Assembly: GCA_046563655.1 (NCBI GenBank)
Contig: CM102286.1
Span: forward strand, 8,804,001-8,868,000
Direction of reading: 5' to 3'
Length of the DNA: 64,000 nucleotides
Origin: Yuukianura sp. NJ FZ-2021
Lineage: Eukaryota
Part shown: positions 1 to 53,598 of the stretch, one piece after another
How the letters are laid out: every line of letters starts with the position of its first letter
Numbering within the stretch: the stretch's first letter is position 1
The notes under the pieces: model-generated
Database searches by the model: none
Seen by the model: the letters and a program-made list of their open reading frames with translations, nothing else
What the model was told of the DNA's origin: nothing
Made by a program: the position numbers and the translations under genes

Positions 1-447
1 AGTCTTCAAAAAGTCATTCTGGGCTATCTGAGGAGTCAAAATTGCAAACCGAAATTATGCTTGTGAAAGCCCATCTGAAGTGTACTAACCTCAATTTTCT
101 TCGAAAAAATCTATTTTTTTCATTAAAAACTCTCCAAAAAGTCATTCTGGGTTATCTGAGGAGTCAAAATTGCAAACCGAAATTATGCTTCTGAAAGCCC
201 ATCTGAAGTGTTCCAAGCTCAATTTTTCACCAAAAAATCATTTTTTTCATTTAAAACTCCCCAAAAAGTCATTCTGGGCTATCTGAGGAGTCAAAATTGC
301 AAACCGAAATTATGCTTCTGAAAGCCCATCTGAAGTGTTCCAAACTCAATTTTTCACCAAAAAATCATTTTTTTCATTAAATAGTCTTCAAAAAGTCATT
401 CTGGGCTATCTGAGGAGTCAAAATTGCAAACCGAAATTATGTTTGTG

Positions 448-601
448 AAATAAAGTTCATTAACCTTTCCTATTGCAAAACATTGCAAAAGACATTAGTA
501 GTGAAGATTTGTTTCATTTATTTTATCATTTCACTACATTTGGTGGTACGAGCTGCTGAATCCTATGGCTTCCACAGGAAGCGAAAATGCGAAAAGCGAA
601 A
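448..601 (+). mobile_element. 5'-truncated copy of the satellite-embedded LTR+PBS fragment
   Basis: Identical to the 3' part (AAATAAAGTTC...CACTACA TTTGGTGGTACG...GCGAAA) of the full insert at 6756. It joins the satellite through an AAA microhomology. Confidence 0.8.
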
Positions 602-1322
602 ATCATTTTTTTCATTAAATAGTCTTCAAAAAGTCATTCTGGGCTATCTGAGGAGTCAAAATTGCAAACCGAAATTATGCTTGTGAAGGCACATCTGAAG
701 TGTACCAACCTCAATTCTCCGAAAAATCATTTTTTTTTCATTAAATACTCTTCAAAAAGTCATTCTGGGCTATCTGAGGAGTCAAAATTGCAACCCGAAA
801 TTATGCTTCTGAAAGCCCATCTGAAGTGTTCCAAACTCAATGTTTTTCCGAAAAATCCATTTTTTTCATTAAATACTCTTCAAAAAGTCATTCTGGGCTA
901 TCTGAGGAGTCAAAATTGCAAACCGAAATTATGCTTCTGAAAGCCCATATGAAGTGTTCCAAACTCAATTTTTCTCCGAAAAATCCATTTTTTTCATTTA
1001 AAACTCCCCAAAAAGTCATTCTGGGCTATCTGAGGAGTCAAAATTGCAAACCGAAATTATGCTTCTGAAAGCCCATCTGAAGTGTTCCAAACTCAATTTT
1101 TCTCCGAAAAATCCATTTTTTTCATTTAAAACTCCCCAAAAAGTCATTCTGGGCTATCTGAGGAGTCAAAATTGCAAACCGAAATTATGCTTCTGAAAGC
1201 CCATCTGAAGTGTTCCAAACTCAATTTTTCACCAAAAAATCATTTTTTTCATTAAATAGTCTTCAAAAAGTCATTCTGGGCTATCTGAGGAGTCAAAATT
1301 GCAAACCGAAATTATGTTTGTG

Positions 1323-1476
1323 AAATAAAGTTCATTAACCTTTCCTATTGCAAAACATTGCAAAAGACATTAGTAGTGAAGATTTGTTTCATTTATTTTA
1401 TCATTTCACTACATTTGGTGGTACGAGCTGCTGAATCCTATGGCTTCCACAGGAAGCGAAAATGCGAAAAGCGAAA
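1323..1476 (+). mobile_element. 5'-truncated copy of the satellite-embedded LTR+PBS fragment
   Basis: Same sequence and same junctions as 448-601. Confidence 0.8.
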
Positions 1477-4400
1477 ATCATTTTTTTCATTAAATAGTCT
1501 TCAAAAAGTCATTCTGGGCTATCTGAGGAGTCAAAATTGCAAACCGAAATTATGCTTGTGAAAGCCCATCTGAAGTGTTCCAATCTCAATTTTTCTCCGA
1601 AAAATCCATTTTTTTCATTAAATACTCTTCAAAAAGTCATTCTGGGCTATCTGAGGAGTCAAAATTGCAAACCGAAATTATGCTTCTGAAAGCCCATCTG
1701 AAGTGTACCAAACTCAATTTTTCTCAAAAAAAATCCATTTTTTTCATTAAAAACTCCCCAAAAAGTCATTCTGGGCTATCTGAGAAGTCAAAATTGCAAA
1801 CCGAAATTATGCTTGTGAAAGCCCATCTGAAAAGTTCCAAGCTCAATTTTTCACCAAAAACTCCATTTTTTTCATTTAAAACTCCCCAAAAAGTCATTCT
1901 GGGCTATCTGAGGAGTCAAAATTGCAAACCGAAATTATGCTTCTGAAAGCCCATCTGAAGTGTTCCAAACTCAATTTTTCACCAAAAAATCATTTTTTTC
2001 ATTAAATAGTCTTCAAAAAGTCATTCTGGGCTATCTGAGGAGTCAAAATTGCAAACCGAAATTATGTTTGTGAAAGCCCATCTGAAGTGTACTAACCTCA
2101 ATTTTCTTCGAAAAAATCTATTTTTTTCATTAGAAACTCTCCAAAAGTCATTCTGGGTTATCTGAGGAGTCAAAATTGCAAACCGAAATTCTGCTTGTGA
2201 AGGCACATCTGAAAAGTTCCAAGCTCAATTTTTCACCAAAAACTCCATTTTTTTCATTTAAAACTCCCCAAAAAGTCATTCTGGGCTATCTGAGGAGTCA
2301 AAATTGCAAACCGAAATTATGCTTCTGAAAGCCCATCTGAAGTGTTCCAAACTCAATTTTTCACCAAAAAATCATTTTTTTCATTAAATAGTCTTCAAAA
2401 AGTCATTCTGGGCTATCTGAGGAGTCAAAATTGCAAACCGAAATTATATTTGTGAAAGCCCATCTGAAGTGTACTAACCTCAATTTTCTTCGAAAAAATC
2501 TATTTTTTTCATTAAAAACTCTCCAAAAAGTCATTCCCGGCTATCTGAGGAGTCGAAATTGCAAACCGTTATAAAACTTGTTAATGCCCAACTGAAGTGT
2601 ACAAATCTCAATTTTTCTCCGAAAAATCCATTCTTTTCATTTATAACTCACCAAAAAGTCATTCTGGGCTATCTGAGGAGTCAAAATTGCAAACCGAAAT
2701 TATGCTTGTGAAGGCACATCTGAAGTGTACCAATCTCAATTTTTCTCCGAAAAATCATTTTTTTTTCATTAAATACTCTTCAAAAAGTCATTCTGGGCTA
2801 TCTGAGATGTCAAAATTGCAACCCGAAATTATGCTTCTGAAAGCCCATCTGAAGTGTTCCAAACTCAATGTTTTTCCGAAAAATCCATTTTTTTCATTTA
2901 AAACTCACCATAAAGTCATTCTGGGCTATCTGAGGAGTCAAAATTGCAAACCAAAATTATGCTTCTGAAAGCCCATCTGAAGTGTTCCAAACTCAATTTT
3001 TCTCCGAAAAATCCATTTTTTTCATTTAAAACTCCCCAAAAAGTCATTCTGGGCTATCTGAGGAGTCAAAATTGCAACCGAAATTATGCTTGTGAAGGCC
3101 CATCTGAAGTGTTCCAAGCTCAATTTTTCACCAAAAAATCATTTTGTTTTCATTTAAAACTCCCCAAAAAGTCATTCTGGGCTATCTGAGGAGTCAAAAT
3201 TGCAAACCGAAATTATGCTTCTGAAAGCCCATCTGAAGTGTTCCAAACTCAATTTTTCACCAAAAAATCATTTTTTTCATTAAATAGTCTTCAAAAAGTC
3301 ATTCTGGGCTATCTGAGGAGTCAAAATTGCAAACCGAAATTATGCTTCTGAAAGCCCATCTGAAGTGTTCCAAACTCAATTTTTCACCAAAAAATCATTT
3401 TTTTCATTAAATAGTCTTCAAAAAGTCATTCTGGGCTATCTGAGGAGTCAAAATTGCAAACCGAAATTATATTTGTGAAAGCCCATCTGAAGTGTACTAA
3501 CCTCAATTTTCTTCGAAAAAATCCATTTTTTTCATTTAAAACTCACCAAAAAGTCATTCTGGGCTATCTGAGGAGTCAAAATTGCAAACCGTTATAAAAC
3601 TTGTTAATGCCCAACTGAAGTGTACAAATCTCAATTTTTCTCCGAAAAATGCATTTTTTTCATTTATAACTCACCAAAAAGTCATTCTGGGCTATCTGAG
3701 GAGTCAAAATTGCAAACCGAAATTATGCTTGTGAAGGCACATCTGAAGTGTACCAATCTCAATTCTTCTCCGAAAAATCATTTTTTTTTCATTAAATACT
3801 CTTCAAAAAGTCATTCTGGGCTATCTGAGATGTCAAAATTGCAACCCGAAATTATGCTTCTGAAAGCCCATCTGAAGTGTTCCAAACTCAATGTTTTTCC
3901 GAAAAATCCATTTTTTTCATTTAAAACTCACCAAAAAGTCATTCTGGGCTATCTGAGGAGTCAAAATTGCAAACCGAAATTATGCTTCTGAAAGCCCATC
4001 TGAAGTGTTCCAAACTCAATTTTTCTCCGAAAAATCCATTTTTTTCATTTAAAACTCCCCAAAAAGTCATTCTGGGCTATCTGAGGAGTCGAAATTGCAA
4101 ACCGAAATTATGCTTGTGAAAGCCCATCTGAAGTGTTCCAAGCTCAATTTTTCACCAAAAAATCATTCTTTCTTCATTTAAAACTCCCCAAAAAGTCATT
4201 CTGGGCTATCTGAGGAGTCAAAATTGCAAACCGAAATTATGCTTCTGAAAGCCCATCTGAAGTGTTCCAAACTCAATTTTTCACCAAAAAATCATTTTTT
4301 TCATTAAATAGTCTTCAAAAAGTCATTCTGGGCTATCTGAGGAGTCAAAATTGCAAACCGAAATTATGCTTGTGAAAGCCCATCTGAAGTGTACTAACCT

Positions 4401-6755
4401 CAATTTTCTTCGAAAAAATCTATTTTTTTCATTAAAAACTCTCCAAAAAGTCATTCCGGGCAATCTGAGGAGTCAAAATTGCAAACCGAAATTATGCTTG
4501 TGAAGGCACATCTGAAAAGTTCCAAGCTCAATTTTTCACCAAAAACTCCATTTTTTTCATTTAAAACTCCCCAAAAAGTCATTCTGGGCTATCTGAGGAG
4601 TCAAAATTGCAAACCGAAATTATGCTTCTGAAAGCCCATCTGAAGTGTTCCAAACTCAATTTTTCACCAAAAAATCATTTTTTTCATTAAATAGTCTTCA
4701 AAAAGTCATTCTGGGCTATCTGAGGAGTCAAAATTGCACACCGAAATTATGTTTGTGAAAGCCCATCTGAAGTGTACTAACCTCAATTTTCTTCGAAAAA
4801 ATCCATTTTTTTCATTTAAAACTCACCAAAAAGTCATTCTGGGCTATCTGAGGAGTCAAAATTGCAAACCGTTATAAAACTTGTTAATGCCCAACTGAAG
4901 TGTACAAATCTCAATTTTTCTCCGAAAAATCCATTTTTTTCATTTATAACTCACCAAAAAGTCATTCTGGGCTATCTGAGGAGTCAAAATTGCAAACCGA
5001 AATTATGCTTGTGAAAGCACATCTGAAGTGTTCCAATCTCAATTTTTCACCGAAAAATCATTTTTTTCCTTAAAAACTCCCCAAAAAGTCATTCTGGGCT
5101 ATCTGAAGAGTCAAAATTGCAAACCCATATTTTGCTTCTGAAAGCCCATCTGAAGTGTACCAAACTCAATTTTTCTCAAAAAAATCCATTTTTTTCTTAA
5201 AAACTCCCCAAAAAGTCATTCTGGGCTATCTGAAGAGTCAAAATTGCAATCCGATATTATGCTTCTGAAAGCCCATCTGAAGTGTACCAAACTCAATTTT
5301 TCTCAAAAAAATCCATTTTTTCCTTAAAAACTCCCCAAAAAGTCATTCTGGGCTATCTGAGGAGTCAAAATTGCAAACCGAAATTATGCTTCTGAAAGCC
5401 CATCTGAAGTGTTCCAATCTCAATTTTTCTCCGAAAAATCCATTTTGTTCATTAAATACTCTACAAAAAGTCATTCTGGGCTATCTGAAGAGTCAAAATT
5501 GCAAACCGATATTATGCTTCTGAAAGCCCATCTGAAGTGTACCAAACTCAATTTTTCTCAAAAAAATCCATTTTCTTCATTAAAAACTCCCCAAAAAGTC
5601 ATTCTGGGCTATCTGAGGAGTCAAAATTGCATACCAAAATTATGCTTCTGAAAGCCCTTCTGAAGTGTTCCAATCTCAATTTTTCTCCGAAAAATCCATT
5701 TTGTTCAAAAACTCCCCAAAAAGTCATTCTGGGCTATCTGAGGAGTCAAAATTGCAAACCGAAATTATGCTTCTGAAAGCCCATCTGAAGTGTTCCAGAC
5801 TAAATTTTTTACCAAAAAATCATTTTTTTCATTAAATACTCTTCAAAAAGTCATTCTGGGCTATCTGAGGAGTCAAAATTGCAAACCGAAATTATGCTTG
5901 TGAAGGCACATCTGAAGTGTACCAATCTCAATTTTTCTCCGAAAAATCCATTTTTTTCATTTATAACTCACCAAAAAGTCATTCTGGGCTATCTGAGGAG
6001 TCAAAATTGCAAACCGAAATTATGCTTGTGAAGGCACATCTGAAAAGTTCCAAGCTCAATTTTTCACCAAAAACTCCATTTTTTTCATTTAAAACTCCCC
6101 AAAAAGTCATTCTGGGTTATCTGAGGAGTCAAAATTGCAACCCGAAATTATGCTTCTGAAAGCCCATCTGAAGTGTTCCAAACTCAATGTTTTTCCCAAA
6201 AACCCATTTTTTTCATTAAATACTCTTCAAAAAGTCATTCTGGGCTATCTGAGATGTCAAAATTGCAAACCGAAATTATGCTTCTGAAAGCCCATATGAA
6301 GTGTTCCAAACTCAATTTTTCTCCGAAAAATCCATTTTTTTCATTTAAAACTCCCCAAAAAGTCATTCTGGGCTATCTGAGGAGTCAAAATTGCAAACCA
6401 AAATTATGCTTCTGAAAGCCCATCTGAAGTGTTCCAAACTCAATTTTTCTCCGAAAAATCCATTTTTTTCATTTAAAACTCCCCAAAAAGTCATTCTGGG
6501 TTATCTGAGGAGTCAAAATTGCAAACCGAAATTATGCTTGTGAAGGCACATCTGAAAAGTTCCAAGCTCAATTTTTCACCAAAAACTCCATTTTTTTCAT
6601 TTAAAACTCCCCAAAAAGTCATTCTGGGCTATCTGAGGAGTCAAAATTGCAAACCGAAATTATGTTTGTGAAAGCCCATCTGAAGTGTACTAACCTCAAT
6701 TTTCTTCGAAAAAATCTATTTTTTTTATTAGAAACTCTCCAAAAGTCATTCCCGG

Positions 6756-7257
6756 TGTTATGAAACAGTCAATTTCCATAATAACGAGAGTTCACTAGAG
6801 TTCATTGCCAAATTGAATTGTCACTCTAAAAGTAGCTCATTGTTATACTTTTAACAAACACAACCTATGTACAACTTGTCTTTTGTTGTAGTAATTAGAA
6901 GTTAGGCCTACAAATGATTTACATATATTCCAAGTAGGGTAACTTCTGACTCTATTCTACTCCAGTGGTTTCCGGTTGAGTCCCTATAAAAAGGGCTCAG
7001 TCCGGCCAGCAAGATTCATTCTGTTTTCTGCTCTTGACCTCTGGTCAATAGGACTTAGTGTCCTACTCCTACTCCTATGCCTTGTCACAAACTTTGTCCG
7101 TCAAAATAAAGTTCATTAACCTTTCCTATTGCAAAACATTGCAAAAGACATTAGTAGTGAAGATTTGTTTCATTTATTTTATCATTTCACTACATTTGGT
7201 GGTACGAGCTGCTGAATCCTATGGCTTCCACAGGAAGCGAAAATGCGAAAAGCGAAA
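6756..7257 (+). mobile_element. Retrotransposon LTR (6756-7194) plus PBS-like site and about 60 bp of leader, embedded in satellite (copy 1)
   Basis: Starts TGTTATGAAA and ends TTTCACTACA (reverse complement TGTAGTGAAA, 8/10 match). Contains TATAAAA and then AATAAA, and is followed by TTTGGTGGTACGAGC. Confidence 0.8.
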
Positions 7258-9607
7258 ATCATTTTTTTCATTAAATAGTCTTCAAAAAGTGATTCTGGGC
7301 TATCTGAGGAGTCAAAATTGCAAACCGAAATTATGCTTGTGAAGGCACATCTGAAGTATACCAACCTCAATTCTTCTCCGAAAAATCATTTTTTTTTCAT
7401 TAAATACTCTTCAAAAAGTCATTCTGGGCTATCTGAGGAGTCAAAATTGCAACCCGAAATTATGCTTCTGAAAGCCCATCTGAAGTGTTCCAAACTCAAT
7501 GTTTTTCCGAAAAATCCATTTTTTTCATTTAAAACTCCCCAAAAAGTCATTCTGGGCTATCTGAGGAGTCAAAATTGCAAACCGAAATTATATTTGTGAA
7601 AGCCTATCTGAAGTGTACTAACCTCAATTTTCTTCGAAAAAATCTATTTTTTTCATTAAAAACTCTCCAAAAAGTCATTCTGGGCTATCTGAGGAGTCAA
7701 AATTGCAAACCGTTATAAAACTTGTTAATGCCCAACTGAAGTGTACAAATCTCAATTTTTCTCCGAAAAATCCATTTTATTCATTTATAACTCCCCAAAA
7801 AGTCATTCTGGGCTATCTGAGGAGTCAAAATTGCAAACAAAAATTATGCTTCTGAAACACCTTCTGAAGTGTACCAATCTCAATTTTTCTCCGAAAAATC
7901 CATTTTATTCATTAAAAACTCCCCAAAAAGTCATTCTGGGCTATCTGAGGAGTCAAAATTGCAAACCGAAATTATGCTTCTGAAAGCCCATCTGAAGTGT
8001 TCCAAACTCAATTTTTCTCCGAAAAATCCATTTTTTTCATTTAAAACTCCCCAAAAAGTCATTCTGGGTTATCTGAGGAGTCAAAATTGCAAACCGAAAT
8101 TATGCTTCTGAAAGCCCATCTGAAGTGTACCAAGCTCAATTTTTCTAAAAAAAAATCCATTCTTTCCATTAAAAACTCCCCAAAAAGTCATTCTGAGCGA
8201 TGTGTGAGGTCAAAATTGCAAACCAAAATTATGCTTCTGAAAGCCCATCTGAAGTGTACCAATCTCAATTCTTCTCCGAAAAATCATTTTTTTTTCATTA
8301 AATACTCTACAAAAAGTCATTCTGGGCTATCTGAGATGTCAAAATTGCAAACCGAAATTATGCTTCTGAAAGCCCATCTGAAGTGTACCAAGCTCAATTT
8401 TTCTAAAAAAAAATGCATTTTTTCCTTAAAAACTCCCCAAAAAGTCATTCTGGGCTATCTGAAGAGTCAAAATTGCAATCCGATATTATGCTTCTGAAAG
8501 CCCATCTGAAGTGTACCAAACTCAATTTTTCTCAAAAAAATCCATTTTCTTCATTAAAAACTCCCCAAAAAGTCATTCTGGGCTATCTGTGAGGGCAAAA
8601 TTGCAAACCCATATTATGCTTCTGAAAGCCCATCTGAAGTGTTCCAAACTCAATTTTTTACCAAAAAATCATTCTTTTTCATTAAATACTCATCAAAAAG
8701 TCATTCTGGGCAATCTGAGGAGTCAAAATTGCAAACCGAAATTCTGCTTCTGAAAGCCCATATGAAGTGTTCCAATCTCAATTTTTCTCCGAAAAATCCT
8801 TTTTTTTTCATTTATAACTCACCAAAAAGTCATTCTGGGCTATCTGAGGAGTCAAAATTGCAAACCGAAATTATGCTTGTGAAGGCACATCTGAAAAGTT
8901 CCAAGCTCAATTTTTCACCAAAAACTCCATTTTTTTCATTTAAAACTCCCCAAAAAGTCATTCTGGGCTATCTGAGGAGTCAAAATTGCAAACCGAAATT
9001 ATGCTTCTGAAAGCCCATCTGAAGTGTTCCAAACTCAATGTTTTTCCCAAAAACCCATTTTTTTCATTAAATACTCTTCAAAAAGTGATTCTGGGCTATC
9101 TGAGGAGTCAAAATTGCAAACCGAAATTATGCTTCTGAAAGCCCATCTGAAGTGTTCCAAACTCAATTTTTCTCCGAAAAATCCATTTTTTTCATTTAAA
9201 ACTCCCCAAAAAGTCATTCTGGGTTATCTGAGGAGTCAAAATTGCAAACCAAAATTATGCTTCTGAAAGCCCATCTGAAGTGTTCCAAACTCAATTTTTC
9301 TCCGAAAAATCCATTTTTTTCATTTAAAACTCCCCAAAAAGTCATTCTGGGCTATCTGAGGAGTCAAAATTGCAAACCGAAATTATGCTTGTGAAGGCAC
9401 ATCTGAAAAGTTCCAAGCTCAATTTTTCACCAAAAACTCCATTTTTTTCATTTAAAACTCCCCAAAAAGTCATTCTGGGCTATCTGAGGAGTCAAAATTG
9501 CACACCGAAATTATGTTTGTGAAAGCCCATCTGAAGTGTACTAACCTCAATTTTCTTCGAAAAAATCCATTTTTTTCATTTAAAACTCCCCAAAAAGTCA
9601 TTCCCGG

Positions 9608-10110
9608 TGTTATGAAACAGTCAAAATTCCATAATAACGAGAGTTCACTAGAGTTCATTGCCAAATTGAATTGTCACTCTAAAAGTAGCTCATTGTTATA
9701 CTTTTAACAAACACAACCTATGTACAACTTGTCTTTTGTTGTAGTAATTAGAAGTTAGGCCTACAAATGATTTACATATATTCCAAGTAGGGTAACTTCT
9801 GACTCTATTCTACTCCAGTGGTTTCCGGTTGAGTCCCTATAAAAAGGGCTCAGTCCGGCCAGCAAGATTCATTCTGTTTTCTGCTCTTGACCTCTGGTCA
9901 ATAGGACTTAGTGTCCTACTCCTACTCCTATGCCTTGTCACAAACTTTGTCCGTCAAAATAAAGTTCATTAACCTTTCCTATTGCAAAACATTGCAAAAG
10001 ACATTAGTAGTGAAGATTTGTTTCATTTATTTTATCATTTCACTACATTTGGTGGTACGAGCTGCTGAATCCTATGGCTTCCACAGGAAGCGAAAATGCG
10101 AAAAGCGAAA
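9608..10110 (+). mobile_element. Satellite-embedded LTR+PBS fragment (copy 2)
   Basis: Near-identical to 6756-7257 with the same left junction CCCGG|TGTTATG. Confidence 0.8.
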
Positions 10111-10920
10111 ATCATTTTTTTCATTAAATAGTCTTCAAAAAGTCATTCTGGGCTATCTGAGGAGTCAAAATTGCAAACCGAAATTATGCTTGTGAAGGCA
10201 CATCTGAAGTATACCAACCTCAATTCTTCTCCGAAAAATCATTTTTTTTTCATTAAATACTCTTCAAAAAGTCATTCTGGGCTATCTGAGGAGTCAAAAT
10301 TGCAACCCGAAATTATGCTTCTGAAAGCCCATCTGAAGTGTTCCAAACTCAATGTTTTTCCGAAAAATCCATTTTTTTCATTTAAAACTCACCATAAAGT
10401 CATTCTGGGCTATCTGAGGAGTCAAAATTGTAAACCGAAATTATGCTTCTGAAAGCCCATATGAAGTGTTCCAAACTCAATTTTTCTCCGAAAAATCCAT
10501 TTTTTTCATTTAAAACTCCCGAAAAAGTCATTCTGGGCTATCTGAGGAGTCAAAATTGCAACCCGAAATTATGCTTCTGAAAGCCCATCTGAAGTGTTCC
10601 AAACTCAATTTTTCTCCGAAAAATCCATTTTTTTCATTTAAAACTCCCCAAAAAGTCATTCTGGGTTATCTGAGGAGTCAAAATTGCAAACCGAAATTCT
10701 GCTTGTGAAGGCACATCTGAAAAGTTCCAAGCTCAATTTTTCACCAAAAACTCCATTTTTTTCATTTAAAACTCCCCAAAAAGTCATTCTGGGCTATCTG
10801 AGGAGTCAAAATTGCAAACCGAAATTATGTTTGTGAAAGCCCATCTGAAGTGTACTAACCTCAATTTTCTTCGAAAAAATCTATTTTTTTCATTAGAAAC
10901 TCTCCAAAAGTCATTCCCGG

Positions 10921-11422
10921 TGTTATGAAACAGTCAATTTCCATAATAACGAGAGTTCACTAGAGTTCATTGCCAAATTGAATTGTCACTCTAAAAGTAG
11001 CTCATTGTTATACTTTTAACAAACACAACCTATGTACAACTTGTCTTTTGTTGTAGTAATTAGAAGTTAGGCCTACAAATGATTTACATATATTCCAAGT
11101 AGGGTAACTTCTGACTCTATTCTACTCCAGTGGTTTCCGGTTGAGTCCCTATAAAAAGGGCTCAGTCCGGCCAGCAAGATTCATTCTGTTTTCTGCTCTT
11201 GACCTCTGGTCAATAGGACTTAGTGTCCTACTCCTACTCCTATGCCTTGTCACAAACTTTGTCCGTCAAAATAAAGTTCATTAACCTTTCCTATTGCAAA
11301 ACATTGCAAAAGACATTAGTAGTGAAGATTTGTTTCATTTATTTTATCATTTCACTACATTTGGTGGTACGAGCTGCTGAATCCTATGGCTTCCACAGGA
11401 AGCGAAAATGCGAAAAGCGAAA
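10921..11422 (+). mobile_element. Satellite-embedded LTR+PBS fragment (copy 3)
   Basis: Near-identical to copy 1 with the same junctions. Confidence 0.8.
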
Positions 11423-13770
11423 ATCATTTTTTTCATTAAATAGTCTTCAAAAAGTGATTCTGGGCTATCTGAGGAGTCAAAATTGCAAACCGAAATTATG
11501 CTTGTGAAGGCACATCTGAAGTGTACCAACCTCAATTCTTCTCCGAAAAATCATTTTTTTTTCATTAAATACTCTTCAAAAAGTCATTCTGGGCTATCTG
11601 AGGAGTCAAAATTGCAACCCGAAATTATGCTTCTGAAAGCCCATCTGAAGTGTTCCAAACTCAATGTTTTTCCGAAAAATCCATTTTTTTCATTTAAAAC
11701 TCACCATAAAGTCATTCTGGGCTATCTGAGGAGTCAAAATTGCAAACCGAAATTCTGCTTCTGAAAGCCCATATGAAGTGTTCCAAACTCAATTTTTCTC
11801 CGAAAAATCCATTTTTTTCATTTAAAACTCCCGAAAAAGTCATTCTGGGCTATCTGAGGAGTCAAAATTGCAACCCGAAATTATGCTTCTGAAAGCACAT
11901 CTGAAGTGTTCCAAACTCAATTTTTCACCAAAAAATCATTTTTTTTCATTAAATAGTCTTCAAAAAGTCATTCTGGGCTATCTGAGGAGTCAAAATTGCA
12001 AACCGAAATTATGTTTGTGAAAGCCCATCTGAAGTGTACTAACCTCAATTTTCTTCGAAAAAATCTATTTTTTTCATTAAAAACTCTCCAAAAAGTCATT
12101 CCCGGCTATCTGAGGAGTCGAAATTGCAAACCGTTATAAAACTTGTTAATGCCCAACTGAAGTGTACAAATCTCAATTTTTCTCCGAAAAATGCATTTTT
12201 TTCATTTATAACTCACCAAAAAGTCATTCCGGGCAATCTGAGGAGTCAAAATTGCAAACCGAAATTATGCTTGTGAAGGCACATCTGAAGTGTACCAATC
12301 TCAATTCTTCTCCGAAAAATCATTTTTTTTTCATTAAATACTCTTCAAAAAGTCATTCTGGGCTATCTGAGATGTCAAAATTGCAAACCGAAATTATGCT
12401 TCTGAAAGCCCATATGAAGTGTTCCAAACTCAATTTTTCTCCGAAAAATCCATTTTTTTCATTTAAAACTCCCCAAAAAGTCATTCTGGGTTATCTGAGG
12501 AGTCAAAATTGCAAACCAAAATTATGCTTCTGAAAGCCCATCTGAAGTGTTCCAAACTCAATTTTTCTCCGAAAAATCCATTTTTTTCATTTAAAACTCC
12601 CCAAAAAGTCATTCTGGGTTATCTGAGGAGTCAAAATTGCAAACCAAAATTATGCTTCTGAAAGCCCATCTGAAGTGTTCCAAACTCAATTTTTCACCAA
12701 AAAATCATTTTTTTTTCATTAAATAGTCTTCAAAAAGTGATTCTGGGCTATCTGAGGAGTCAAAATTGCAAACCGAAATTATGCTTGTGAAGGCACATCT
12801 GAAGTTTACCAATCTCAATTTTTCTCCGAAAAATCCTTTTTTTTTCATTTATAACTCACCAAAAAGTCATTCTAGGCTATCTGAGGAGTCAAAATTGCAA
12901 ACCGAAATTCTGCTTGTGAAGGCACATCTGAAAAGTTCCAAGCTCAATTTTTCACCAAAAACTCCATTTTTTTCATTTAAAACTCCCCAAAAAGTCATTC
13001 TGGGTTATCTGAGGAGTCAAAATTGCAACCCGAAATTATGCTTCTGAAAGCCCATCTGAAGTGTTCCAAACTCAATGTTTTTCCGAAAAATCCATTTTTT
13101 TCATTAAATACTCTTCAAAAAGTCATTCTGGGCTATCTGAGATGTCAAAATTGCAAACCGAAATTATGCTTCTGAAAGCCCATATGAAGTGTTCCAAACT
13201 CAATTTTTCTCCGAAAAATCCATTTTTTTCATTTAAAACTCCCCAAAAAGTCATTCTGGGTTATCTGAGGAGTCAAAATTGCAAACCAAAATTATGCTTC
13301 TGAAAGCCCATCTGAAGTGTTCCAAACTCAATTTTTCTCCGAAAAATCCATTTTTTTCATTTAAAACTCCCCAAAAAGTCATTCTGGGTTATCTGAGGAG
13401 TCAAAATTGCAAACCGAAATTCTGCTTGTGAAGGCACATCTGAAAAGTTCCAAGCTCAATTTTTCACCAAAAACTCCATTTTTTTCATTTAAAACTCCCC
13501 AAAAAGTCATTCTGGGCTATCTGAGGAGTCAAAATTGCAACCCGAAATTATGCTTCTGAAAGCCCATCTGAAGTGTTCCAAACTCAATTTTTCACCAAAA
13601 AATCATTTTTTTCATTAAATAGTCTTCAAAAAGTCATTCTGGGCTATCTGAGGAGTCAAAATTGCAAACCGAAATTATGTTTGTGAAAGCCCATCTGAAG
13701 TGTACTAACCTCAATTTTCTTCGAAAAAATCTATTTTTTTCATTAGAAACTCTCCAAAAGTCATTCCCGG

Positions 13771-14271
13771 TGTTATGAAACAGTCAATTTCCATAATAAC
13801 GAGAGTTCACTAGAGTTCATTGCCAAATTGAATTGTCACTCTAAAAGTAGCTCATTGTTATACTTTTAACAAACACAACCTATGTACAACTTGTCTTTTG
13901 TTGTAGTAATTAGAAGTTAGGCCTACAAATGATTTACATATATTCCAAGTAGGGTAACTTCTGACTCTTTCTACTCCAGTGGTTTCCGGTTGAGTTCCTA
14001 TAAAAAGGGCTCAGTCCGGCCAGCAAGATTCATTCTGTTTTCTGCTCTTGACCTCTGGTCAATAGGACTTAGTGTCCTACTCCTACTCCTATGCCTTGTC
14101 ACAAACTTTGTCCGTCAAAATAAAGTTCATTAACCTTTCCTATTGCAAAACATTGCAAAAGACATTAGTAGTGAAGATTTGTTTCATTTATTTTATCATT
14201 TCACTACATTTGGTGGTACGAGCTGCTGAATCCTATGGCTTCCACAGGAAGCGAAAATGCGAAAAGCGAAA
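13771..14271 (+). mobile_element. Satellite-embedded LTR+PBS fragment (copy 4)
   Basis: Same junctions. Shares two diagnostic variants (GACTCTTTCTAC, GAGTTCCTATA) with copy 5. Confidence 0.8.
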
Positions 14272-16361
14272 ATCATTTTTTTCATTAAATAGTCTTCAAA
14301 AAGTCATTCTGGGCTATCTGAGGAGTCAAAATTGCAAACCGAAATTATGTTTGTGAAAGCCCATCTGAAGTGTACTAACCTCAATTTTCTTCGAAAAAAT
14401 CTATTTTTTTCATTAAAAACTCTCCAAAAAGTCATTCCCGGCTATCTGAGGAGTCGAAATTGCAAACCGTTATAAAACTTGCTAATGCCCAGCTGAAGTG
14501 TACAAATCTCAATTTTTCTCCGAAAAATGCATTTTTTTCATTTATAACTCACCAAAAAGTCATTCCGGGCAATCTGAGGAGTCAAAATTGCAAACCGAAA
14601 TTATGCTTGTGAAGGCACATCTGAAGTGTACCAATCTCAATTCTTCTCCGAAAAATCATTTTTTTCATTAAATACTCTTCAAAAAGTCATTCTGGGCTAT
14701 CTGAGATGTCAAAATTGCAAACCGAAATTATGCTTCTGAAAGCCCATATGAAGTGTTCCAAACTCAATTTTTCTCCGAAAAATCCATTTTTTTCATTTAA
14801 AACTCCCCAAAAAGTCATTCTGGGTTATCTGAGGAGTCAAAATTGCAAACCAAAATTATGCTTCTGAAAGCCCATCTGAAGTGTTCCAAACTCAATTTTT
14901 CACCAAAAAATCATTTTTTTTTTCATTAAATACTCATCAAAAAGTCATTCTGGGCTATCTGAGGAGTCAAAATTGCAAACCGAAATTATGCTTGTGAAGG
15001 CACATCTGAAGTGTACCAATCTCAATTTTTCACCAAAAACTCCATTTTTTTCATTTATAACTCACCAAAAAGTCATTCTAGGCTATCTGAGGAGTCAAAA
15101 TTGCAAACCGAAATTCTGCTTGTGAAGGCACATCTGAAAAGTTCCAAGCTCAATTTTTCACCAAAAACTCCATTTTTTTCATTTAAAACTCCCCAAAAAG
15201 TCATTCTGGGTTATCTGAGGAGTCAAAATTGCAACCCGAAATTATGCTTCTGAAAGCCCATCTGAAGTGTTCCAAACTCAATGTTTTTCCGAAAAATCCA
15301 TTTTTTTCATTAAATACTCTTCAAAAAGTCATTCTGGGCTATCTGAGATGTCAAAATTGCAAACCGAAATTATGCTTCTGAAAGCCCATATGAAGTGTTC
15401 CAAACTCAATTTTTCTCCGAAAAATCCATTTTTTTCATTTAAAACTCCCCAAAAAGTCATTCTGGGTTATCTGAGGAGTCAAAATTGCAAACCAAAATTA
15501 TGCTTCTGAAAGCCCATCTGAAGTGTTCCAAACTCAATTTTTCTCCGAAAAATCCATTTTTTTCATTTAAAACTCCCCAAAAAGTCATTCTGGGTTATCT
15601 GAGGAGTCAAAATTGCAAACCAAAATTATGCTTGTGAAGGCACATCTGAAGTGTACCAATCTCAATTCTTCTCCGAAAAATCCTTTTTTTTTCATTTATA
15701 ACTCACCAAAAAGTCATTCTGGGCTATCTGAGGAGTCAAAATTGCAAACCGAAATTATGCTTGTGAAGGCACATCTGAAAAGTTCCAAGCTCAATTTTTC
15801 ACCAAAAACTCCATTTTTTTCATTTAAAACTCCCCAAAAAGTCATTCTGGGTTATCTGAGGAGTCAAAATTGCAAACCGAAATTATGCTTCTGAAAGCCC
15901 ATCTGAAGTGTTCCAAACTCAATGTTTTTCCGAAAAATCCATTTTTTTCATTAAATACTCTTCAAAAAGTCATTCTGGGCTATCTGAGATGTCAAAATTG
16001 CAAACCGAAATTATGCTTCTGAAAGCCCATATGAAGTGTTCCAAACTCAATTTTTCTCCGAAAAATCCATTTTTTTCATTTAAAACTCCCCAAAAAGTCA
16101 TTCTGGGTTATCTGAGGAGTCAAAATTGCAAACCAAAATTATGCTTCTGAAAGCCCATCTGAAGTGTTCCAAACTCAATTTTTCACCAAAAAATCATTTT
16201 TTTCATTAAATAGTCTTCAAAAAGTCATTCTGGGCTATCTGAGGAGTCAAAATTGCAAACCGAAATTATGTTTGTGAAAGCCCATCTGAAGTGTACTAAC
16301 CTCAATTTTCTTCGAAAAAATCTATTTTTTTCATTAGAAACTCTCCAAAAGTCATTCCCGG

Positions 16362-16862
16362 TGTTATGAAACAGTCAATTTCCATAATAACGAGAGTTCA
16401 CTAGAGTTCATTGCCAAATTGAATTGTCACTCTAAAAGTAGCTCATTGTTATACTTTTAACAAACACAACCTATGTACAACTTGTCTTTTGTTGTAGTAA
16501 TTAGAAGTTAGGCCTACAAATGATTTACATATATTCCAAGTAGGGTAACTTCTGACTCTTTCTACTCCAGTGGTTTCCGGTTGAGTTCCTATAAAAAGGG
16601 CTCAGTCCGGCCAGCAAGATTCATTCTGTTTTCTGCTCTTGACCTCTGGTCAATAGGACTTAGTGTCCTACTCCTACTCCTATGCCTTGTCACAAACTTT
16701 GTCCGTCAAAATAAAGTTCATTAACCTTTCCTATTGCAAAACATTGCAAAAGACATTAGTAGTGAAGATTTGTTTCATTTATTTTATCATTTCACTACAT
16801 TTGGTGGTACGAGCTGCTGAATCCTATGGCTTCCACAGGAAGCGAAAATGCGAAAAGCGAAA
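16362..16862 (+). mobile_element. Satellite-embedded LTR+PBS fragment (copy 5)
   Basis: Same junctions; same variants as copy 4. Confidence 0.8.
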
Positions 16863-19209
16863 ATCATTTTTTTCATTAAATAGTCTTCAAAAAGTCATTC
16901 TGGGCTATCTGAGGAGTCAAAATTGCAAACCGAAATTATGTTTGTGAAAGCCCATCTGAAGTGTACTAACCTCAATTTTCTTCGAAAAAATCTATTTTTT
17001 TCATTAAAAACTCTCCAAAAAGTCATTCCCGGCTATCTGAGGAGTCGAAATTGCAAACCGTTATAAAACTTGCTAATGCCCAGCTGAAGTGTACAAATCT
17101 CAATTTTTCTCCGAAAAATGCATTTTTTTCATTTATAACTCACCAAAAAGTCATTCCGGGCAATCTGAGGAGTCAAAATTGCAAACCGAAATTATGCTTG
17201 TGAAGGCACATCTGAAGTGTACCAATCTCAATTCTTCTCCGAAAAATCATTTTTTTCATTAAATACTCTTCAAAAAGTCATTCTGGGCTATCTGAGATGT
17301 CAAAATTGCAAACCGAAATTATGCTTCTGAAAGCCCATATGAAGTGTTCCAAACTCAATTTTTCTCCGAAAAATCCATTTTTTTCATTTAAAACTCCCCA
17401 AAAAGTCATTCTGGGTTATCTGAGGAGTCAAAATTGCAAACCAAAATTATGCTTCTGAAAGCCCATCTGAAGTGTTCCAAACTCAATTTTTCACCAAAAA
17501 ATCATTTTTTTTTCATTAAATAGTTTTCAAAAAGTGATTCTGGGCTATCTGAGGAGTCAAAATTGCAAACCGAAATTATGCTTGTGAAGGCACATCTGAA
17601 GTGTACCAATCTCAATTTTTCTCCGAAAAATCCTTTTTTTTCATTTATAACTCACCAAAAAGTCATTCTAGGCTATCTGAGGAGTCAAAATTGCAAACCG
17701 AAATTCTGCTTGTGAAGGCACATCTGAAAAGTTCCAAGCTCAATTTTTCACCAAAAACTCCATTTTTTTCATTTAAAACTCCCCAAAAAGTCATTCTGGG
17801 TTATCTGAGGAGTCAAAATTGCAACCCGAAATTATGCTTCTGAAAGCCCATCTGAAGTGTTCCAAACTCAATGTTTTTCCGAAAAATCCATTTTTTTTCA
17901 TTAAATACTCTTCAAAAAGTCATTCTGGGCTATCTGAGATGTCAAAATTGCAAACCGAAATTATGCTTCTGAAAGCCCATATGAAGTGTTCCAAACTCAA
18001 TTTTTCTCCGAAAAATCCATTTTTTTCATTTAAAACTCCCCAAAAAGTCATTCTGGGTTATCTGAGGAGTCAAAATTGCAAACCAAAATTATGCTTCTGA
18101 AAGCCCATCTGAAGTGTTCCAAACTCAATTTTTCTCCGAAAAATCCATTTTTTTCATTTAAAACTCCCCAAAAAGTCATTCTGGGTTATCTGAGGAGTCA
18201 AAATTGCAAACCAAAATTATGCTTCTGAAAGCCCATCTGAAGTGTTCCAAACTCAATTTTTCACCAAAAAATCATTTTTTTTTCATTAAATAGTTTTCAA
18301 AAAGTGATTCTGGGCTATCTGAGGAGTCAAAATTGCAAACCGAAATTATGCTTGTGAAGGCACATCTGAAGTGTACCAATCTCAATTTTTCTCCGAAAAA
18401 TCCTTTTTTTTTCATTTATAACTCACCAAAAAGTCATTCTAGGCTATCTGAGGAGTCAAAATTGCAAACCGAAATTCTGCTTGTGAAGGCACATCTGAAA
18501 AGTTCCAAGCTCAATTTTTCACCAAAAACTCCATTTTTTTCATTTAAAACTCCCCAAAAAGTCATTCTGGGTTATCTGAGGAGTCAAAATTGCAACCCGA
18601 AATTATGCTTCTGAAAGCCCATCTGAAGTGTTCCAAACTCAATGTTTTTCCGAAAAATCCATTTTTTTCATTAAATACTCTTCAAAAAGTCATTCTGGGC
18701 TATCTGAGATGTCAAAATTGCAAACCGAAATTATGCTTCTGAAAGCCCATATGAAGTGTTCCAAACTCAATTTTTCTCCGAAAAATCCATTTTTTTCATT
18801 TAAAACTCCCCAAAAAGTCATTCTGGGTTATCTGAGGAGTCAAAATTGCAAACCAAAATTATGCTTCTGAAAGCCCATCTGAAAAGTTCCAAGCTCAATT
18901 TTTCACCAAAAACTCCATTTTTTTCATTTAAAACTCCCCAAAAAGTCATTCTGGGCTATCTGAGGAGTCAAAATTGCAACCCGAAATTATGCTTCTGAAA
19001 GCCCATCTGAAGTGTTCCAAACTCAATTTTTCACCAAAAAATCATTTTTTTCATTAAATAGTCTTCAAAAAGTCATTCTGGGCTATCTGAGGAGTCAAAA
19101 TTGCAAACCGAAATTATGTTTGTGAAAGCCCATCTGAAGTGTACTAACCTCAATTTTCTTCGAAAAAATCTATTTTTTTCATTAGAAACTCTCCAAAAGT
19201 CATTCCCGG

Positions 19210-19711
19210 TGTTATGAAACGGTCAATTTCCATAATAACGAGAGTTCACTAGAGTTCATTGCCAAATTGAATTGTCACTCTAAAAGTAGCTCATTGTTAT
19301 ACTTTTAACAAACACAACCTATGTACAACTTGTCTTTTGTTGTAGTAATTAGAAGTTAGGCCTACAAATGATTTACATATATTCCAAGTAGGGTAACTTC
19401 TGACTCTATTCTACTCCAGTGGTTTCCGGTTGAGTCCCTATAAAAAGGGCTCAGTCCGGCCAGCAAGATTCATTCTGTTTTCTGCTCTTGACCTCTGGTC
19501 AATAGGACTTAGTGTCCTACTCCTACTCCTATGCCTTGTCACAAACTTTGTCCGTCAAAATAAAGTTCATTAACCTTTCCTATTGCAAAACATTGCAAAA
19601 GACATTAGTAGTGAAGATTTGTTTCATTTATTTTATCATTTCACTACATTTGGTGGTACGAGCTGCTGAATCCTATGGCTTCCACAGGAAGCGAAAATGC
19701 GAAAAGCGAAA
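19210..19711 (+). mobile_element. Satellite-embedded LTR+PBS fragment (copy 6)
   Basis: Same junctions as copy 1. Confidence 0.8.
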
Positions 19712-22700
19712 ATCATTTTTTTCATTAAATAGTCTTCAAAAAGTCATTCTGGGCTATCTGAGGAGTCAAAATTGCAAACCGAAATTATGTTTGTGAAAGC
19801 CCATCTGAAGTATACTAACCTCAATTTTCTTCGAAAAAATCTATTTTTTTCATTAAAAACTCTCCAAAAAGTCATTCCCGGCTATCTGAGGAGTCGAAAT
19901 TGCAAACCGTTATAAAACTTGTTAATGCCCAACTGAAGTGTACAAATCTCAATTTTTCTCCGAAAAATGCATTTTTTTCATTTATAACTCACCAAAAAGT
20001 CATTCCGGGCAATCTGAGGAGTCAAAATTGCAAACCGAAATTATGCTTGTGAAGGCACATCTGAAGTGTACCAATCTCAATTCTTCTCCGAAAAATCATT
20101 TTTTTTTCATTAAATACTCTTCAAAAAGTCATTCTGGGCTATCTGAGATGTCAAAATTGCAAACCGAAATTATGCTTCTGAAAGCCCATATGAAGTGTTC
20201 CAAACTCAATTTTTCTCCGAAAAATCCATTTTTTTCATTTAAAACTCCCCAAAAAGTCATTCTGGGTTATCTGAGGAGTCAAAATTGCAAACCAAAATTA
20301 TGCTTCTGAAAGCCCATCTGAAGTGTTCCAAACTCAATTTTTCTCCGAAAAATCCATTTTTTTCATTTAAAACTCTCCAAAAAGTCATTCCCGGCTATCT
20401 GAGGAGTCGAAATTGCAAACCGAAATTATCCTTGTGAAGGCACATCTGAAGTTTACCAATCCCAATTTTTCTCTGAAAAATCCTTTTTTTTTCATTTATA
20501 ACTCACCAAAAAGTCATTCTAGGCTATCTGAGGAGTCAAAATTGCAAACCGAAATTCTGCTTGTGAAGGCACATCTGAAGTGTTCCAAGCTCAATTTTCC
20601 ACCAAAAAATCATTTTTTTTCATTAAATACTCTAAAAAAAGTCATTCTGGGCTATCTGAGATGTCAAAATTGCAAACCGAAATTATGCTTGTGAAGGCAC
20701 ATCTGAAGTGTTCCAAGCTCAATTTTTCACCAAAAAATCTTTTTTTTTTTCATTAAATACTCTTCAAAAAGTCATTCTGTGCTATCTGAGATGTCAAAAT
20801 TGCAAACCGAAATTATGCTTCTGAAAGCCCATCTGAAGTGTACCAATCTCAATTTTTCTCCGAAAAATCCTTTTTTTTTCATTTATAACTCACCAAAAAG
20901 TCATTCTAGGCTATCTGAGGAGCCAAAATTGCAAACCGAAATTCTGCTTGTGAAAGCCCATATGAAGTGTTCCAAACTCAATTTTTCTCCGAAAAATCCA
21001 TTTTTTTCATTTAAAACTCCCCAAAAAGTCATTCTGGGCTATCTGAGGAGTCAAAATTGCAACCCGAAATTATGCTTCTGAAAGCCCATCTGAAGTGTTC
21101 CAAACTCAATTTTTCACCAAAAAATCATTTTTTTTTCATTAAATAGTCTTCAAAAAGTCATTCTGGGCTATCTGAGGAGTCAAAATTGCAAACCGAAATT
21201 ATGCTTCTGAAAGCCCATATGAAGTGTTCCAAACTCAATTTTTCTCCGAAAAATCCATTTTTTTTCATTTAAAACTCTCCAAAAAGTCATTCCCGGCTAT
21301 CTGAGGAGTCGAAATTGCAAACCGAAATTCTGCTTGTGAAGGCACATCTGAAGTGTTCCAAGCTCAATTTTCCACCAAAAAATCATTTTTTTTTCATTAA
21401 ATACTCTAAAAAAAAGTCATTCCGGGCAATCTGAGGAGTCAAAATTGCAAACCGAAATTATGCTTGTGAAGGCACATCTGAAGTGTACCAATCTCAATTC
21501 TTCTCCGAAAAATCATTTTTTTTTCATTAAATACTCTTCAAAAAGTCATTCTGGGCTATCTGAGATGTCAAAATTGCAAACCGAAATTATGCTTCTGAAA
21601 GCCCATATGAAGTGTTCCAAACTCAATTTTTCTCCGAAAAATCCATTTTTTTCATTTAAAACTCCCCAAAAAGTCATTCTGGGTTATCTGAGGAGTCAAA
21701 ATTGCAAACCAAAATTATGCTTCTGAAAGCCCATTTGAAGTGTTCCAAACTCAATTTTTCTCCGAAAAATCCATTTTTTTTCATTTAAAACTCTCCAAAA
21801 AGTCATTCCCGGCTATCTGAGGAGTCGAAATTGCAAACCGAAATTATCCTTGTGAAGGCACATCTGAAGTTTACCAATCCCAATTTTTCTCTGAAAAATC
21901 CTTTTTTTTTCATTTACAACTCACCAAAAAGTCATTCTAGGCTATCTGAGGAGTCAAAATTGCAAACCGAAATTCTGCTTGTGAAGGCACATCTGAAGTG
22001 TTCCAAGCTCAATTTTCCACCAAAAAATCATTTTTTTTCATTAAATACTCTAAAAAAAAGTCATTCTGGGCTATCTGAGATGTCAAAATTGCAAACCGAA
22101 ATTATGCTTGTGAAGGCACATCTGAAGTGTTCCAAGCTCAATTTTTCACCAAAAAATCATTTTTTTCATTAAATACTCTTCAAAAAGTCATTCTGTGCTA
22201 TCTGAGATGTCAAAATTGCAAACCGAAATTATGCTTCTGAAAGCCCATCTGAAGTGTACCAATCTCAATTTTTCTCCGAAAAATCCTTTTTTTTTCATTT
22301 ATAACTCACCAAAAAGTCATTCTAGGCTATCTGAGGAGCCAAAATTGCAAACCGAAATTCTGCTTGTGAAAGCCCATATGAAGTGTTCCAAACTCAATTT
22401 TTCTCCGAAAAATCCATTTTTTTTCATTTAAAACTCCCCAAAAAGTCATTCTGGGCTATCTGAGGAGTCAAAATTGCAACCCGAAATTATGCTTCTGAAA
22501 GCCCATCTGAAGTGTTCCAAACTCAATTTTTCACCAAAAAATCATTTTTTTTTCATTAAATAGTCTTCAAAAAGTCATTCTGGGCTATCTGAGGAGTCAA
22601 AATTGCAACCCGAAATTATGCTTCTGAAAGCCCATCTGAAGTGTACCAATCTCAATTTTTCTCCGAAAAATCCTTTTTTTTTTTCATTTATAACTCACCA

Positions 22701-23902
22701 AAAAGTCATTCCCGGCTATCTGAGGAGTCGAAATTGCAAACCGTTATAAAACTTGTTAATGCCCAACTGAAGTGTACAGATCTCAATTTTTCTCCGAAAA
22801 ATTCATTTTTTTTCATTTATAACTCACCAAAAAGTCATTGCGGGCAATCTGAGGAGTCAAAATTGCAAACCGAAATTATGCTTGTGAAAGTCCATCTGAA
22901 GTGTACTAACCTCAATTTTCTTCGAAAAAAATCTATTTTTTTCATTAAAAACTCTCCAAAAAGTCATTCCCGGCTATCTGAGGAGTCGAAATTGCAAACC
23001 GAAATTATCCTTGTGAAGGCACATCTGAAGTTTACCAATCCCAATTTTTCTCTGAAAAATCCTTTTTTTTTCATTTATAACTCACCAAAAAGTCATTCTG
23101 GGCTATCTGAGATGTCAAAATTGCAAACCGAAATTATACTTGTGAAGTGTTCCAAGCTCAATTTTTCACCAAAAAATCTTTTTTTTTTCATTAAATACTC
23201 TTCAAAAAGTCATTCTGTGCTATCTGAGATGTCAAAATTGCAAACCGAAATTATGCTTCTGAAAGCCCATCTGAAGTGTACCAATCTCAATTTTTCTAAA
23301 AAAAAATCCATTTTTTCCTTAAAAACTCCCCAAAAAGTCATGCTGGGCTATCTGAGGAGTCAAAATTGCAACCCGAAATTATGCTTCTGAAAGCCCATCT
23401 GAAGTGTTCCAAACTCAATTTTTCTCAAAAAAAATCCATTTTCTTCATTAAAAACTCCCCAAAAAGTCATTCTGGGCTATCTGAAGAGTCAAAATTGCAA
23501 TCCGATATTATGCTTCTGAAAGCCCATCTGAAGTGTACCAAACTCAATTTTTCTCCGAAAAATCCTTTTTTTTTTTCATTTATAACTCACCAAAAAGTCA
23601 TTCCCGGCTATCTGAGGAGTCGAAATTGCAAACCGTTATAAAACTTGTTAATGCCAGCTGAAGTGTACAGATCTCAATTTTTCTCCGAAAAATTCATTTT
23701 TTTTCATTTATAACTCACCAAAAAGTCATTGCGGGCAATCTGAGGAGTCAAAATTGCAAACCGAAATTATGCTTGTGAAAGTCCATCTGAAGTGTACTAA
23801 CCTCAATTTTCCACCAAAAAATCATTTTTTTCATTAAATACTCTCCAAAAAATCATTCCCGTCTATCTGAGGAGTCGAAATTGCAAACCGTTATAAAACT
23901 TG

Positions 23903-24499
23903 TGTGGGGGTTATTCCCCACAAACCACTATAGCCACTTTGGTTCCCTTTCCCCTCTTCTCCCCCTTCGTCCTTCCAGTGACAGCACAACAAGAACTCCA
24001 CGTCTTCACCACCAAAACCACTCAACAACCAATCAGATGCACGGGAAGTTGCATCATCTATTTGGACATGCATCCCGTCATCATCATCTTCACCTCTGTC
24101 CACTTCTGCCTCCACACAGTCCAGCTCCAACCGTCACTCTGCCCGGATCTTGTCCCGTCTCTTTCCACATCTCCTCCATCTTGGATTGGCCACTGGACCA
24201 CGCCGGACCTACTGTTGTGACACGGACGTGACCTCTACAAGCCCCACCGGACCAGTACTTGGTCAATCCTGCACAGGACCGAGCCCCACCAACCTCTACA
24301 TTTCATCATTTCTGCATTTGGCCTAAAACCGTAACCGTATCTTTAGTTATACTAAAATAAACCAATTATTCATTGCAGCTCTTGACCTCCGTCTCCGTCC
24401 CACTTTATTTCTTTCGAGTGGCCTTTGTGCCAGTCGTCGGGGCATTGCAACCCCTCAGGTGGGATGCTCAGACGGGAAACGAGCCACCGTGACCTCACA
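23903..24499 (+). mobile_element. Candidate LTR ending the satellite; possibly the 5' LTR of the downstream Ty3/Gypsy element
   Basis: Begins TGTGGGGGTT exactly where a satellite monomer breaks off and has AATAAA at about 24356. The 3' end is either ACCCCTCA (24457, followed by GGTGGGATGCTC) or GACCTCACA (24499). No partner LTR is in the window. Confidence 0.5.
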
Positions 24500-30771: not shown

Positions 30772-30774
30772 TAA

Positions 30775-30791
30775 TGGCCCTTCGACCGGAT
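30775..30791 (+). promoter_or_regulatory. Primer-binding site, tRNA-Tyr-like
   Basis: TGGCCCTTCGACCGGAT versus TGGTCCTTCGAGCCGGAT (complement of the metazoan tRNA-Tyr 3' end); 3 nt after the LTR. Confidence 0.7.
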
Positions 30792-36086: not shown

Positions 36087-36169
36087 CCACTACAATGACA
36101 ATCAACTCAATTTGTATTATATCGCCATCCCTACATTTAAAAGATTCTTACCCGACATCGCTCTTTGTT

Positions 36170-53590: not shown

Positions 53591-53598
53591 TTAACGAC

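Follow-up and report, generated by a model that had tools for sequence, protein, structure and literature searches.

How did one segment of non-satellite DNA come to stand at several places, always in the same orientation, within an array of 128-bp satellite repeats? This question is raised by a stretch of 64,000 nucleotides from Yuukianura sp. NJ FZ-2021 (GenBank assembly GCA_046563655.1, contig CM102286.1, positions 8,804,001 to 8,868,000 of the forward strand), referred to here as the window. The original prediction for this locus was that the long terminal repeat (LTR) and primer-binding site (PBS) of a retrotransposon had been absorbed into the satellite and amplified with it. We consider it very probable that an LTR retrotransposon supplied the insert, which would be its truncated 5' end and would have been carried along passively by unequal exchange in the satellite.

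The satellite occupies positions 1-23890, and its 128-bp period was reported by Tandem Repeats Finder (TRF) over 3-450, 599-1325 and 1474-23890, the last of these intervals containing 173.6 copies with 79% matches. When the array was masked by BLAST with a dimer of the monomer and the uncovered gaps inside it were counted, eight non-satellite gaps were found to interrupt it. Six are long (502-504 bp; 6752-7254, 9604-10107, 10917-11419, 13767-14268, 16358-16859 and 19206-19708) and two are short (149 bp each; 450-598 and 1325-1473), and all eight inserts are on the + strand. The range originally given, 448 to 19711, holds the six full copies and also includes the two truncated copies, which have no TATA box. 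The long copies are 99.6-100% identical in BLAST alignments over 503-504 bp, with only 5 variable columns in about 500, and both short copies are exact matches to the last 151 bp of the long insert. The left and right junctions are common to all six long copies, as had been predicted, and the right junction is common to all eight inserts. Within the window, a BLAST search with the insert matched the insert copies and nothing else, and the 128-bp monomer had no similarity to the insert. The ratio of observed to expected CpG is 0.44 in a sample of the satellite (2001-6000), 0.47 in the insert and 0.92 in the remainder of the window (24000-64000), which is rich in transposable elements (TEs). The low value in the array could reflect methylation-driven decay or merely base composition.

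The place where the foreign DNA entered can be read from the satellite itself. The array was cut at 160 anchors, each a match to a 28-nt sequence, and the monomers were clustered into types A to I. The uninterrupted order is B-C-F-E, wherein B is followed by C in 9 of 19 cases, C by F in 8 of 11 and F by E in 6 of 10. The 14 nucleotides to the left of the insert, AAAGTCATTCCCGG, form a monomer head that 7 of the 10 F-type monomers share and that is absent from types A-E and G-I. To the right, the satellite resumes with a 31-nt tail that has at most one mismatch to 11 of the 19 B-type tails; tails of other types have at least three mismatches, except for two E-type tails with one. Monomer typing thus places the insertion site in an F-type monomer. 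A C-type monomer precedes all six long inserts, and two kinds of flank follow them. Three inserts (6752, 9604 and 10917) are followed by E-I (class I), and the other three (13767, 16358 and 19206) by C-F-E-A-B-H-D-G-A (class II). In the short form, a C-like monomer at ...TTTGTGAAA is joined to the putative LTR at TAAAG, with a 3-nt AAA overlap. This form retains the same right junction and is therefore a product of a deletion of about 430 bp internal to the long form.

The identity of this insert as an LTR is strongly indicated. With all anatomical coordinates taken from copy 1 (Table 1), position 6755 is the last with homology to the F-type monomer, and a TG begins at 6756; the border is the same in all six long copies. 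At the two ends, TGTTATGAAA (the first ten bases) and TTTCACTACA (7185-7194) form an inverted match at 8 of 10 positions. Between these ends are motif matches to a TATA box, an initiator-like site and a poly(A) signal, and a TGG-initiated PBS-like site, TGGTGGTACGAG, follows closely after the terminal CA. Both the sequence TCATTC and its 33-nt distance from the TATA box fit the arthropod initiator consensus and spacing. At the level of motifs, the layout would be that of U3-R-U5-PBS, with R probably extending from about 7018 to about 7130 and U5 from there to 7194. The PBS-like sequence has 8 matches in the window, all within inserts, compared with 0.14 expected. Two intact LTR elements in the window exhibit the same arrangement, in which 2-3 nt separate the LTR from TGG, and each is flanked by a 5-bp target-site duplication (TSD). 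The 3' side of the insertion studied here is deleted, and therefore no such duplication can remain there. Beyond the PBS-like site lie a retained leader and eight filler bases, GAAAAGCG, which resemble the adjoining GCGAAAA. The features originally described for a spacer of about 500 bp (the 8/10 inverted match, the TATA box, the poly(A) signal and the TGG-initiated site) are all present in copy 1. Of the proposed TG...CA ends, TG does coincide with the left junction, but CA is internal and located 60 nt before the right junction. ARAGORN found no tRNA genes in the window. A search of papers with the 12-mer TGGTGGTACGAG, its complement and its RNA form gave no match, and a 10-mer matched only an unrelated, widely used primer.

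Related sequences outside the window bear on this assignment. Four public runs contain the insert; three of them come from one sample and the fourth (X2) from a second study under another organism label, and none is recorded as RNA. Their contigs were compared over 6700-7310. Diverged pieces covering the insert are found in all four runs, and thus in both studies; in run X4, none of the 26 pieces is at least 99% alike. Among the 34 variant rows listed, 27 fall in 6853-6981, within U3, and 7 in 7066-7127, with none in 7128-7246. A variable U3 accompanied by a conserved U5, PBS and leader is the variation pattern of an LTR family. Furthermore, two contigs from X1 and two from X4, representing two sequence variants, depart from the insert at 7246 into non-satellite DNA that is richer in GC, of which 30 nt are visible. 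These diverged copies running past 7246 indicate that a dispersed family exists. Satellite-only contigs join at 7255, and therefore the eight bases between these two points belong to neither side. The left junction is bridged by X1 record 1 (6701-6943) and X3 record 17 (6701-6920), and the right junction by X2 record 16 (7217-7308), from the second study. X1 record 8 (7117-7284) has 30 letters beyond 7254, one under the 31-letter rule for bridging. In three runs, the word depth of exact insert contigs is high. In X1, the summed contig word depth is about 1e6 for satellite-only contigs and about 2-5e3 for insert contigs, these being rough figures that do not represent copy numbers.

It is quite unlikely that the insert is something other than an LTR, namely an arbitrary piece of another dispersed repeat or of unique DNA that entered the array at a break and whose motifs are coincidental. 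The proposal draws on the weakness of the motifs when each is taken individually. Among 20000 shuffles in which the first ten bases were held fixed, an 8/10 inverted match ending in CA arose in 5269, and this match together with a TGG within 5 nt in 342. The full combination, in which TATAAA is also present and is followed 40-250 nt on by AATAAA, arose in none, although this last figure overstates the significance because the feature set was picked after the sequence was seen. A coincidental origin is also difficult to reconcile with a TG placed exactly at the satellite junction, with an ordered series that runs from TATA through the initiator-like site and AATAAA to CA, TT and TGG, and with the LTR-like distribution of variation among genomic copies.

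Several observations nevertheless weigh against our interpretation. The terminal inverted match by itself is frequent by chance (26% of shuffles). Taken as complementary to the 3' end of a tRNA, the PBS-like stretch is tRNA-like for only about 12-16 nt, as judged by eye and not by computation. One X4 contig matches from 6751, after unrelated sequence, and so includes the CCCGG before TG; unless this is a diverged hybrid copy, it would imply that CCCGG travels with the element, and a match that starts 5 nt before TG also favours capture of non-LTR DNA. The same proposal is favoured by the failure to recover the parent: no full-length element, second LTR or gag-pol region was found by BLAST in the window, by exact scans of metagenome and viral collections or in the run contigs. 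A 20-nt motif from the continuation behind 7246 has no match in the window when as many as 3 mismatches are allowed. Exact scans of metagenome contigs (with the LTR end plus PBS, and with the leader) and of viral contigs (with the PBS) also gave none, and these collections are unlikely to contain this animal. Lastly, copy number and spacing come from one assembly of a repetitive region. The proposed absorption of an LTR is partly supported: it has the LTR/PBS-like anatomy and the TG terminus at the satellite junction in its favour, but a full-length parent was not recovered.

We regard as extremely unlikely a second alternative, wherein the array is a tandemized non-autonomous LTR element, similar to the Cassandra/TRIM-type arrays that share LTRs, and the 128-bp satellite is its internal repeat. 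Such arrays are described for plants (PMC7215508), and the locus resembles them in the shared orientation of its LTRs, in the PBS-like site and satellite that come after each of them, and in the recurrence of 2.85-kb spacings. However, the LTR is not preceded by a purine tract. Rather, the bases at this position, ...CTCCAAAAGTCATTCCCGG, are the head of an ordinary monomer type that occurs uninterrupted elsewhere. The leader is cut against a monomer tail with filler bases, and other genomic copies run past 7246 into non-satellite sequence. In addition, satellite-only contigs are much deeper than insert contigs, and the complete series of spacings (2852, 1313, 2850, 2591 and 2848 bp) is irregular.

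These spacings between long inserts, together with the 875 bp that separate the short pair, also bear on how the copies multiplied. Although a step of about 2.85 kb recurs, the array is a mosaic and not a clean higher-order repeat. The flanks of the inserts are 97-100% identical over 256-1280 bp and then fall to 83-93%, which is the pattern expected from repeated unequal exchange. The large units are far more alike (99.6-100% for the inserts) than are the array monomers (79% matches by TRF). Identical junctions, near-identical copies and a conserved order of flanking monomers establish that the insert had a single origin and was amplified at the DNA level, which agrees with the one insertion and later amplification that had been proposed. 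Tandem duplication by itself produces co-oriented copies. The short copies, which have no promoter, were duplicated as well, and thus amplification is independent of the promoter.

Repetitive arrays are error-prone in assembly and none of the listed contigs spans a whole insert, so one might suspect that the hybrid unit is real while its sixfold repetition and spacing are artefacts of a collapsed or mis-expanded satellite. We find this very unlikely. The copies are marked by private variants and have flanks of two kinds on their right, and the high word depth of exact insert contigs in three runs fits the presence of multiple copies.

The following order of events, including the mechanism of the deletions, is suggested by the junctions. 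An LTR retrotransposon would have integrated once into an F-type monomer, between CCCGG and CTATC, within a run ordered ...B-C-F-E... An illegitimate deletion would then have begun in the leader, about 50 nt beyond the primer-binding site, and ended in the tail of a B-type monomer farther downstream, a tail that is normally followed by C-F-E. Along with an unspecified number of monomers, the coding body and the 3' LTR would have been lost, and eight filler bases would have been left where the two sides met. What survived, namely the 5' LTR, the PBS and a short leader, would thereby have joined the local repeat, and the loss of C-F in one lineage would have given the E-I class of flank. Unequal exchange or segmental duplication of blocks of 1.3-2.9 kb would have copied the unit at least six times, and the further internal deletion of about 430 bp would have produced the promoter-less short form, itself probably duplicated once, 875 bp away. 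The original account of a body deletion thus holds insofar as a deletion did join leader to satellite, but not as simple GAAAA microhomology within one monomer. Such microhomology is not demonstrable because eight filler bases lie at the joint, and the deletion was not confined to one monomer because its satellite side is a B-type tail whereas the target was an F-type monomer. Three other routes were considered and rejected: repeated independent insertions are ruled out by the identical junctions, formation of a solo LTR through LTR-LTR recombination by the retained PBS and leader, and retrotransposition of a composite unit by the shared flanking monomers.

Does the LTR do anything in its present location? 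There is a small chance that these LTRs are functional, such that periodic promoters drive satellite transcription of relevance to heterochromatin or the centromere and the unit has spread for this reason. The TATA box and initiator-like motif are intact, with canonical spacing, in all six long copies, and all long copies are co-oriented. However, AATAAA is located only about 87 nt past the predicted start (about 7018), and therefore read-through into the satellite is no more likely than short terminated transcripts. As noted above, co-orientation follows automatically from tandem duplication, and the two short copies were duplicated despite having no promoter. A lone copy may yield only a short polyadenylated RNA, and may tend to terminate transcripts that arrive from upstream. 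We hold it to be improbable that the six co-oriented LTR promoters and the poly(A) signals paired with them mark starts and stops along the array, such that this block of satellite would yield defined LTR-satellite transcripts or small RNAs for heterochromatin or centromere specification and the unit would be spreading through this activity. The insert is most likely now a passive passenger, with a promoter that may be active and a poly(A) signal of its own, both predicted from its motifs. A scan for bacterial-type promoters and terminators found none and is not relevant to an animal.

Other features of the window are included in Table 1. The satellite ends at 23890 inside an F-type monomer, where it abuts TGTGGGGGTTATTCCCCACA (23891-23910), a sequence that looks like the end of another TG-starting element. 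Beyond the array, the window is dense in TEs, including a BEL/Pao element, Ty3/gypsy-like gag and protease pieces and a degraded Maverick/Polinton-like block. The BEL/Pao element has LTRs at 38728-39093 and 45131-45497 that are 99.2% identical, the TSD CTAAT, and a PBS-like site, TGGTGACCCTGG, 3 nt after the LTR. Its open reading frame (ORF) of 1777 amino acids (39414-44747) encodes DUF1759, reverse transcriptase, Pao protease, integrase zinc-binding (H2C2) and DUF5641 domains, and the best named relatives of its polymerase are springtail, pseudoscorpion and fly proteins with at most 61% identity, which points to an animal host, probably an arthropod. It is nested within a larger LTR element that has Ty3-capsid-like ORFs inside and aspartyl-protease-like ORFs just downstream of its right LTR.

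Table 1. Positions in the window of the satellite, its inserts, the parts of insert copy 1 and neighbouring features.
Feature	Position	Strand	Remarks
128-bp satellite array	1..23890	+	TRF, 160 monomer anchors; extends beyond window start
Short derivative 1	448..598	+	left junction in C-like monomer, GTGAAA/TAAAG; keeps AATAAA, U5, PBS-like site, leader and filler only
Short derivative 2	1323..1473	+	identical to derivative 1, 875 bp downstream
Head of interrupted F-type monomer, AAAGTCATTCCCGG	6742..6755	+	left junction, copy 1
Probable LTR	6756..7194	+	439 bp, TGTTATGAAA...TTTCACTACA, TG start, CA end
TATAAA	6985..6990	+	motif match inside LTR
Initiator-like TCATTC	7016..7021	+	its A at 7018, 33 nt after first T of TATA
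AATAAA poly(A) signal	7105..7110	+	motif match in LTR
PBS-like TGGTGGTACGAG	7197..7208	+	TGG start, 2 nt (TT) after CA of LTR
Retained leader	7209..7246	+	homology to other genomic element copies ends at 7246
Filler GAAAAGCG	7247..7254	+	8 nt, fits neither element relatives nor satellite
31-nt tail of B-type monomer	7255..7285	+	right junction
Full copy 2	9608..10107	+	class I flank, then E-I
Full copy 3	10921..11419	+	class I flank; identical to copy 1
Full copy 4	13771..14268	+	class II flank, then C-F-E
Full copy 5	16362..16859	+	class II flank; two private variants in common with copy 4
Full copy 6	19210..19708	+	class II flank
29/41-bp repeats	25249-25371		related to the 29-bp minisatellite, 1.6 kb upstream of it
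29-bp minisatellite	26904-27141		8.2 copies, 96% matches
Larger LTR element	30342-46881		LTRs 30342-30771 and 46452-46881, 99.5% identical; TSD CCTTT
BEL/Pao retrotransposon	38728-45497	-	apparently intact, young
Degraded Maverick/Polinton-like block	about 50100-62000
rve integrase, in this block	52620-53129, 53024-53590		split over two frames
A32/FtsK-like ATPase fragment, in this block	54177-54707
BIR/IAP-domain ORF, in this block	56282-56863		E 3.7e-19
Protein-primed polB fragment, in this block	58612-59316	-	E 8e-4

Comparable loci have been described. In Drosophila, TE insertions into satellites, accretion of TEs at array ends and unequal crossover are described in PMC5411766, which also presents the Rsp-Doc5-ProtoP unit of D. 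melanogaster, a TE/satellite composite duplicated with an identical insertion site. Tandem repeats of rye are reported to be co-amplified with adjacent TEs (PMC4857426). As in these two cases, a TE/satellite junction made once recurs here with the same insertion site, and therefore the composite was duplicated at the DNA level and not repeatedly inserted. Unlike in the Rsp-Doc5-ProtoP unit, the passenger here consists of a 5' LTR, PBS and leader stump, and there are six direct tandem units plus two derived ones within about 19 kb, compared with one inverted duplicate 100 kb away. Models of unequal crossover and accretion (Smith 1976; McAllister and Werren 1999; both as cited in PMC5411766) find parallels in the mosaic blocks of near identity, the higher-order sequence of monomer types and the location of TE material toward the array end, which lies at 23890 with inserts at 0.4-19.7 kb. 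However, the models predict that TEs gather at array ends, whereas here the TE stump is itself a repeated part of the array.

LTR-derived satellites, examples of which are RPCS of Ctenomys and sat23/KERV-1 of the wallaby, are a related class. PMC12628747 reviews how parts of TEs become tandem repeats, as well as composite satellite monomers. The locus is like LTR-derived satellites in that LTR sequence is tandemly repeated in heterochromatin-like DNA. It is unlike them in that their monomer is TE-derived, whereas here the LTR is a spacer added to a pre-existing satellite.

The insert can also be likened to solo or truncated LTR remnants, in that an LTR remains after loss of the element body. 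A solo LTR is the product of LTR-LTR recombination, which keeps its TSDs and has no PBS. In contrast, the insert still has its PBS and a leader of about 50 nt but no 3' flank, which argues for an illegitimate deletion with filler bases.

This case is thus a tidy further example of a known event, and an ordinary route to satellite complexity. Its value lies in being clean and datable, with integration, illegitimate deletion with filler and unequal exchange on the kilobase scale recorded step by step in the monomer types. The stump can also serve as a marker, wherein the private variants and two flank classes can trace exchange events within the array. It should likewise be usable for comparing individuals and sister taxa because the same right junction is found in the run from the second study. 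If the LTR promoters are active, they would provide a defined start site for satellite transcription.

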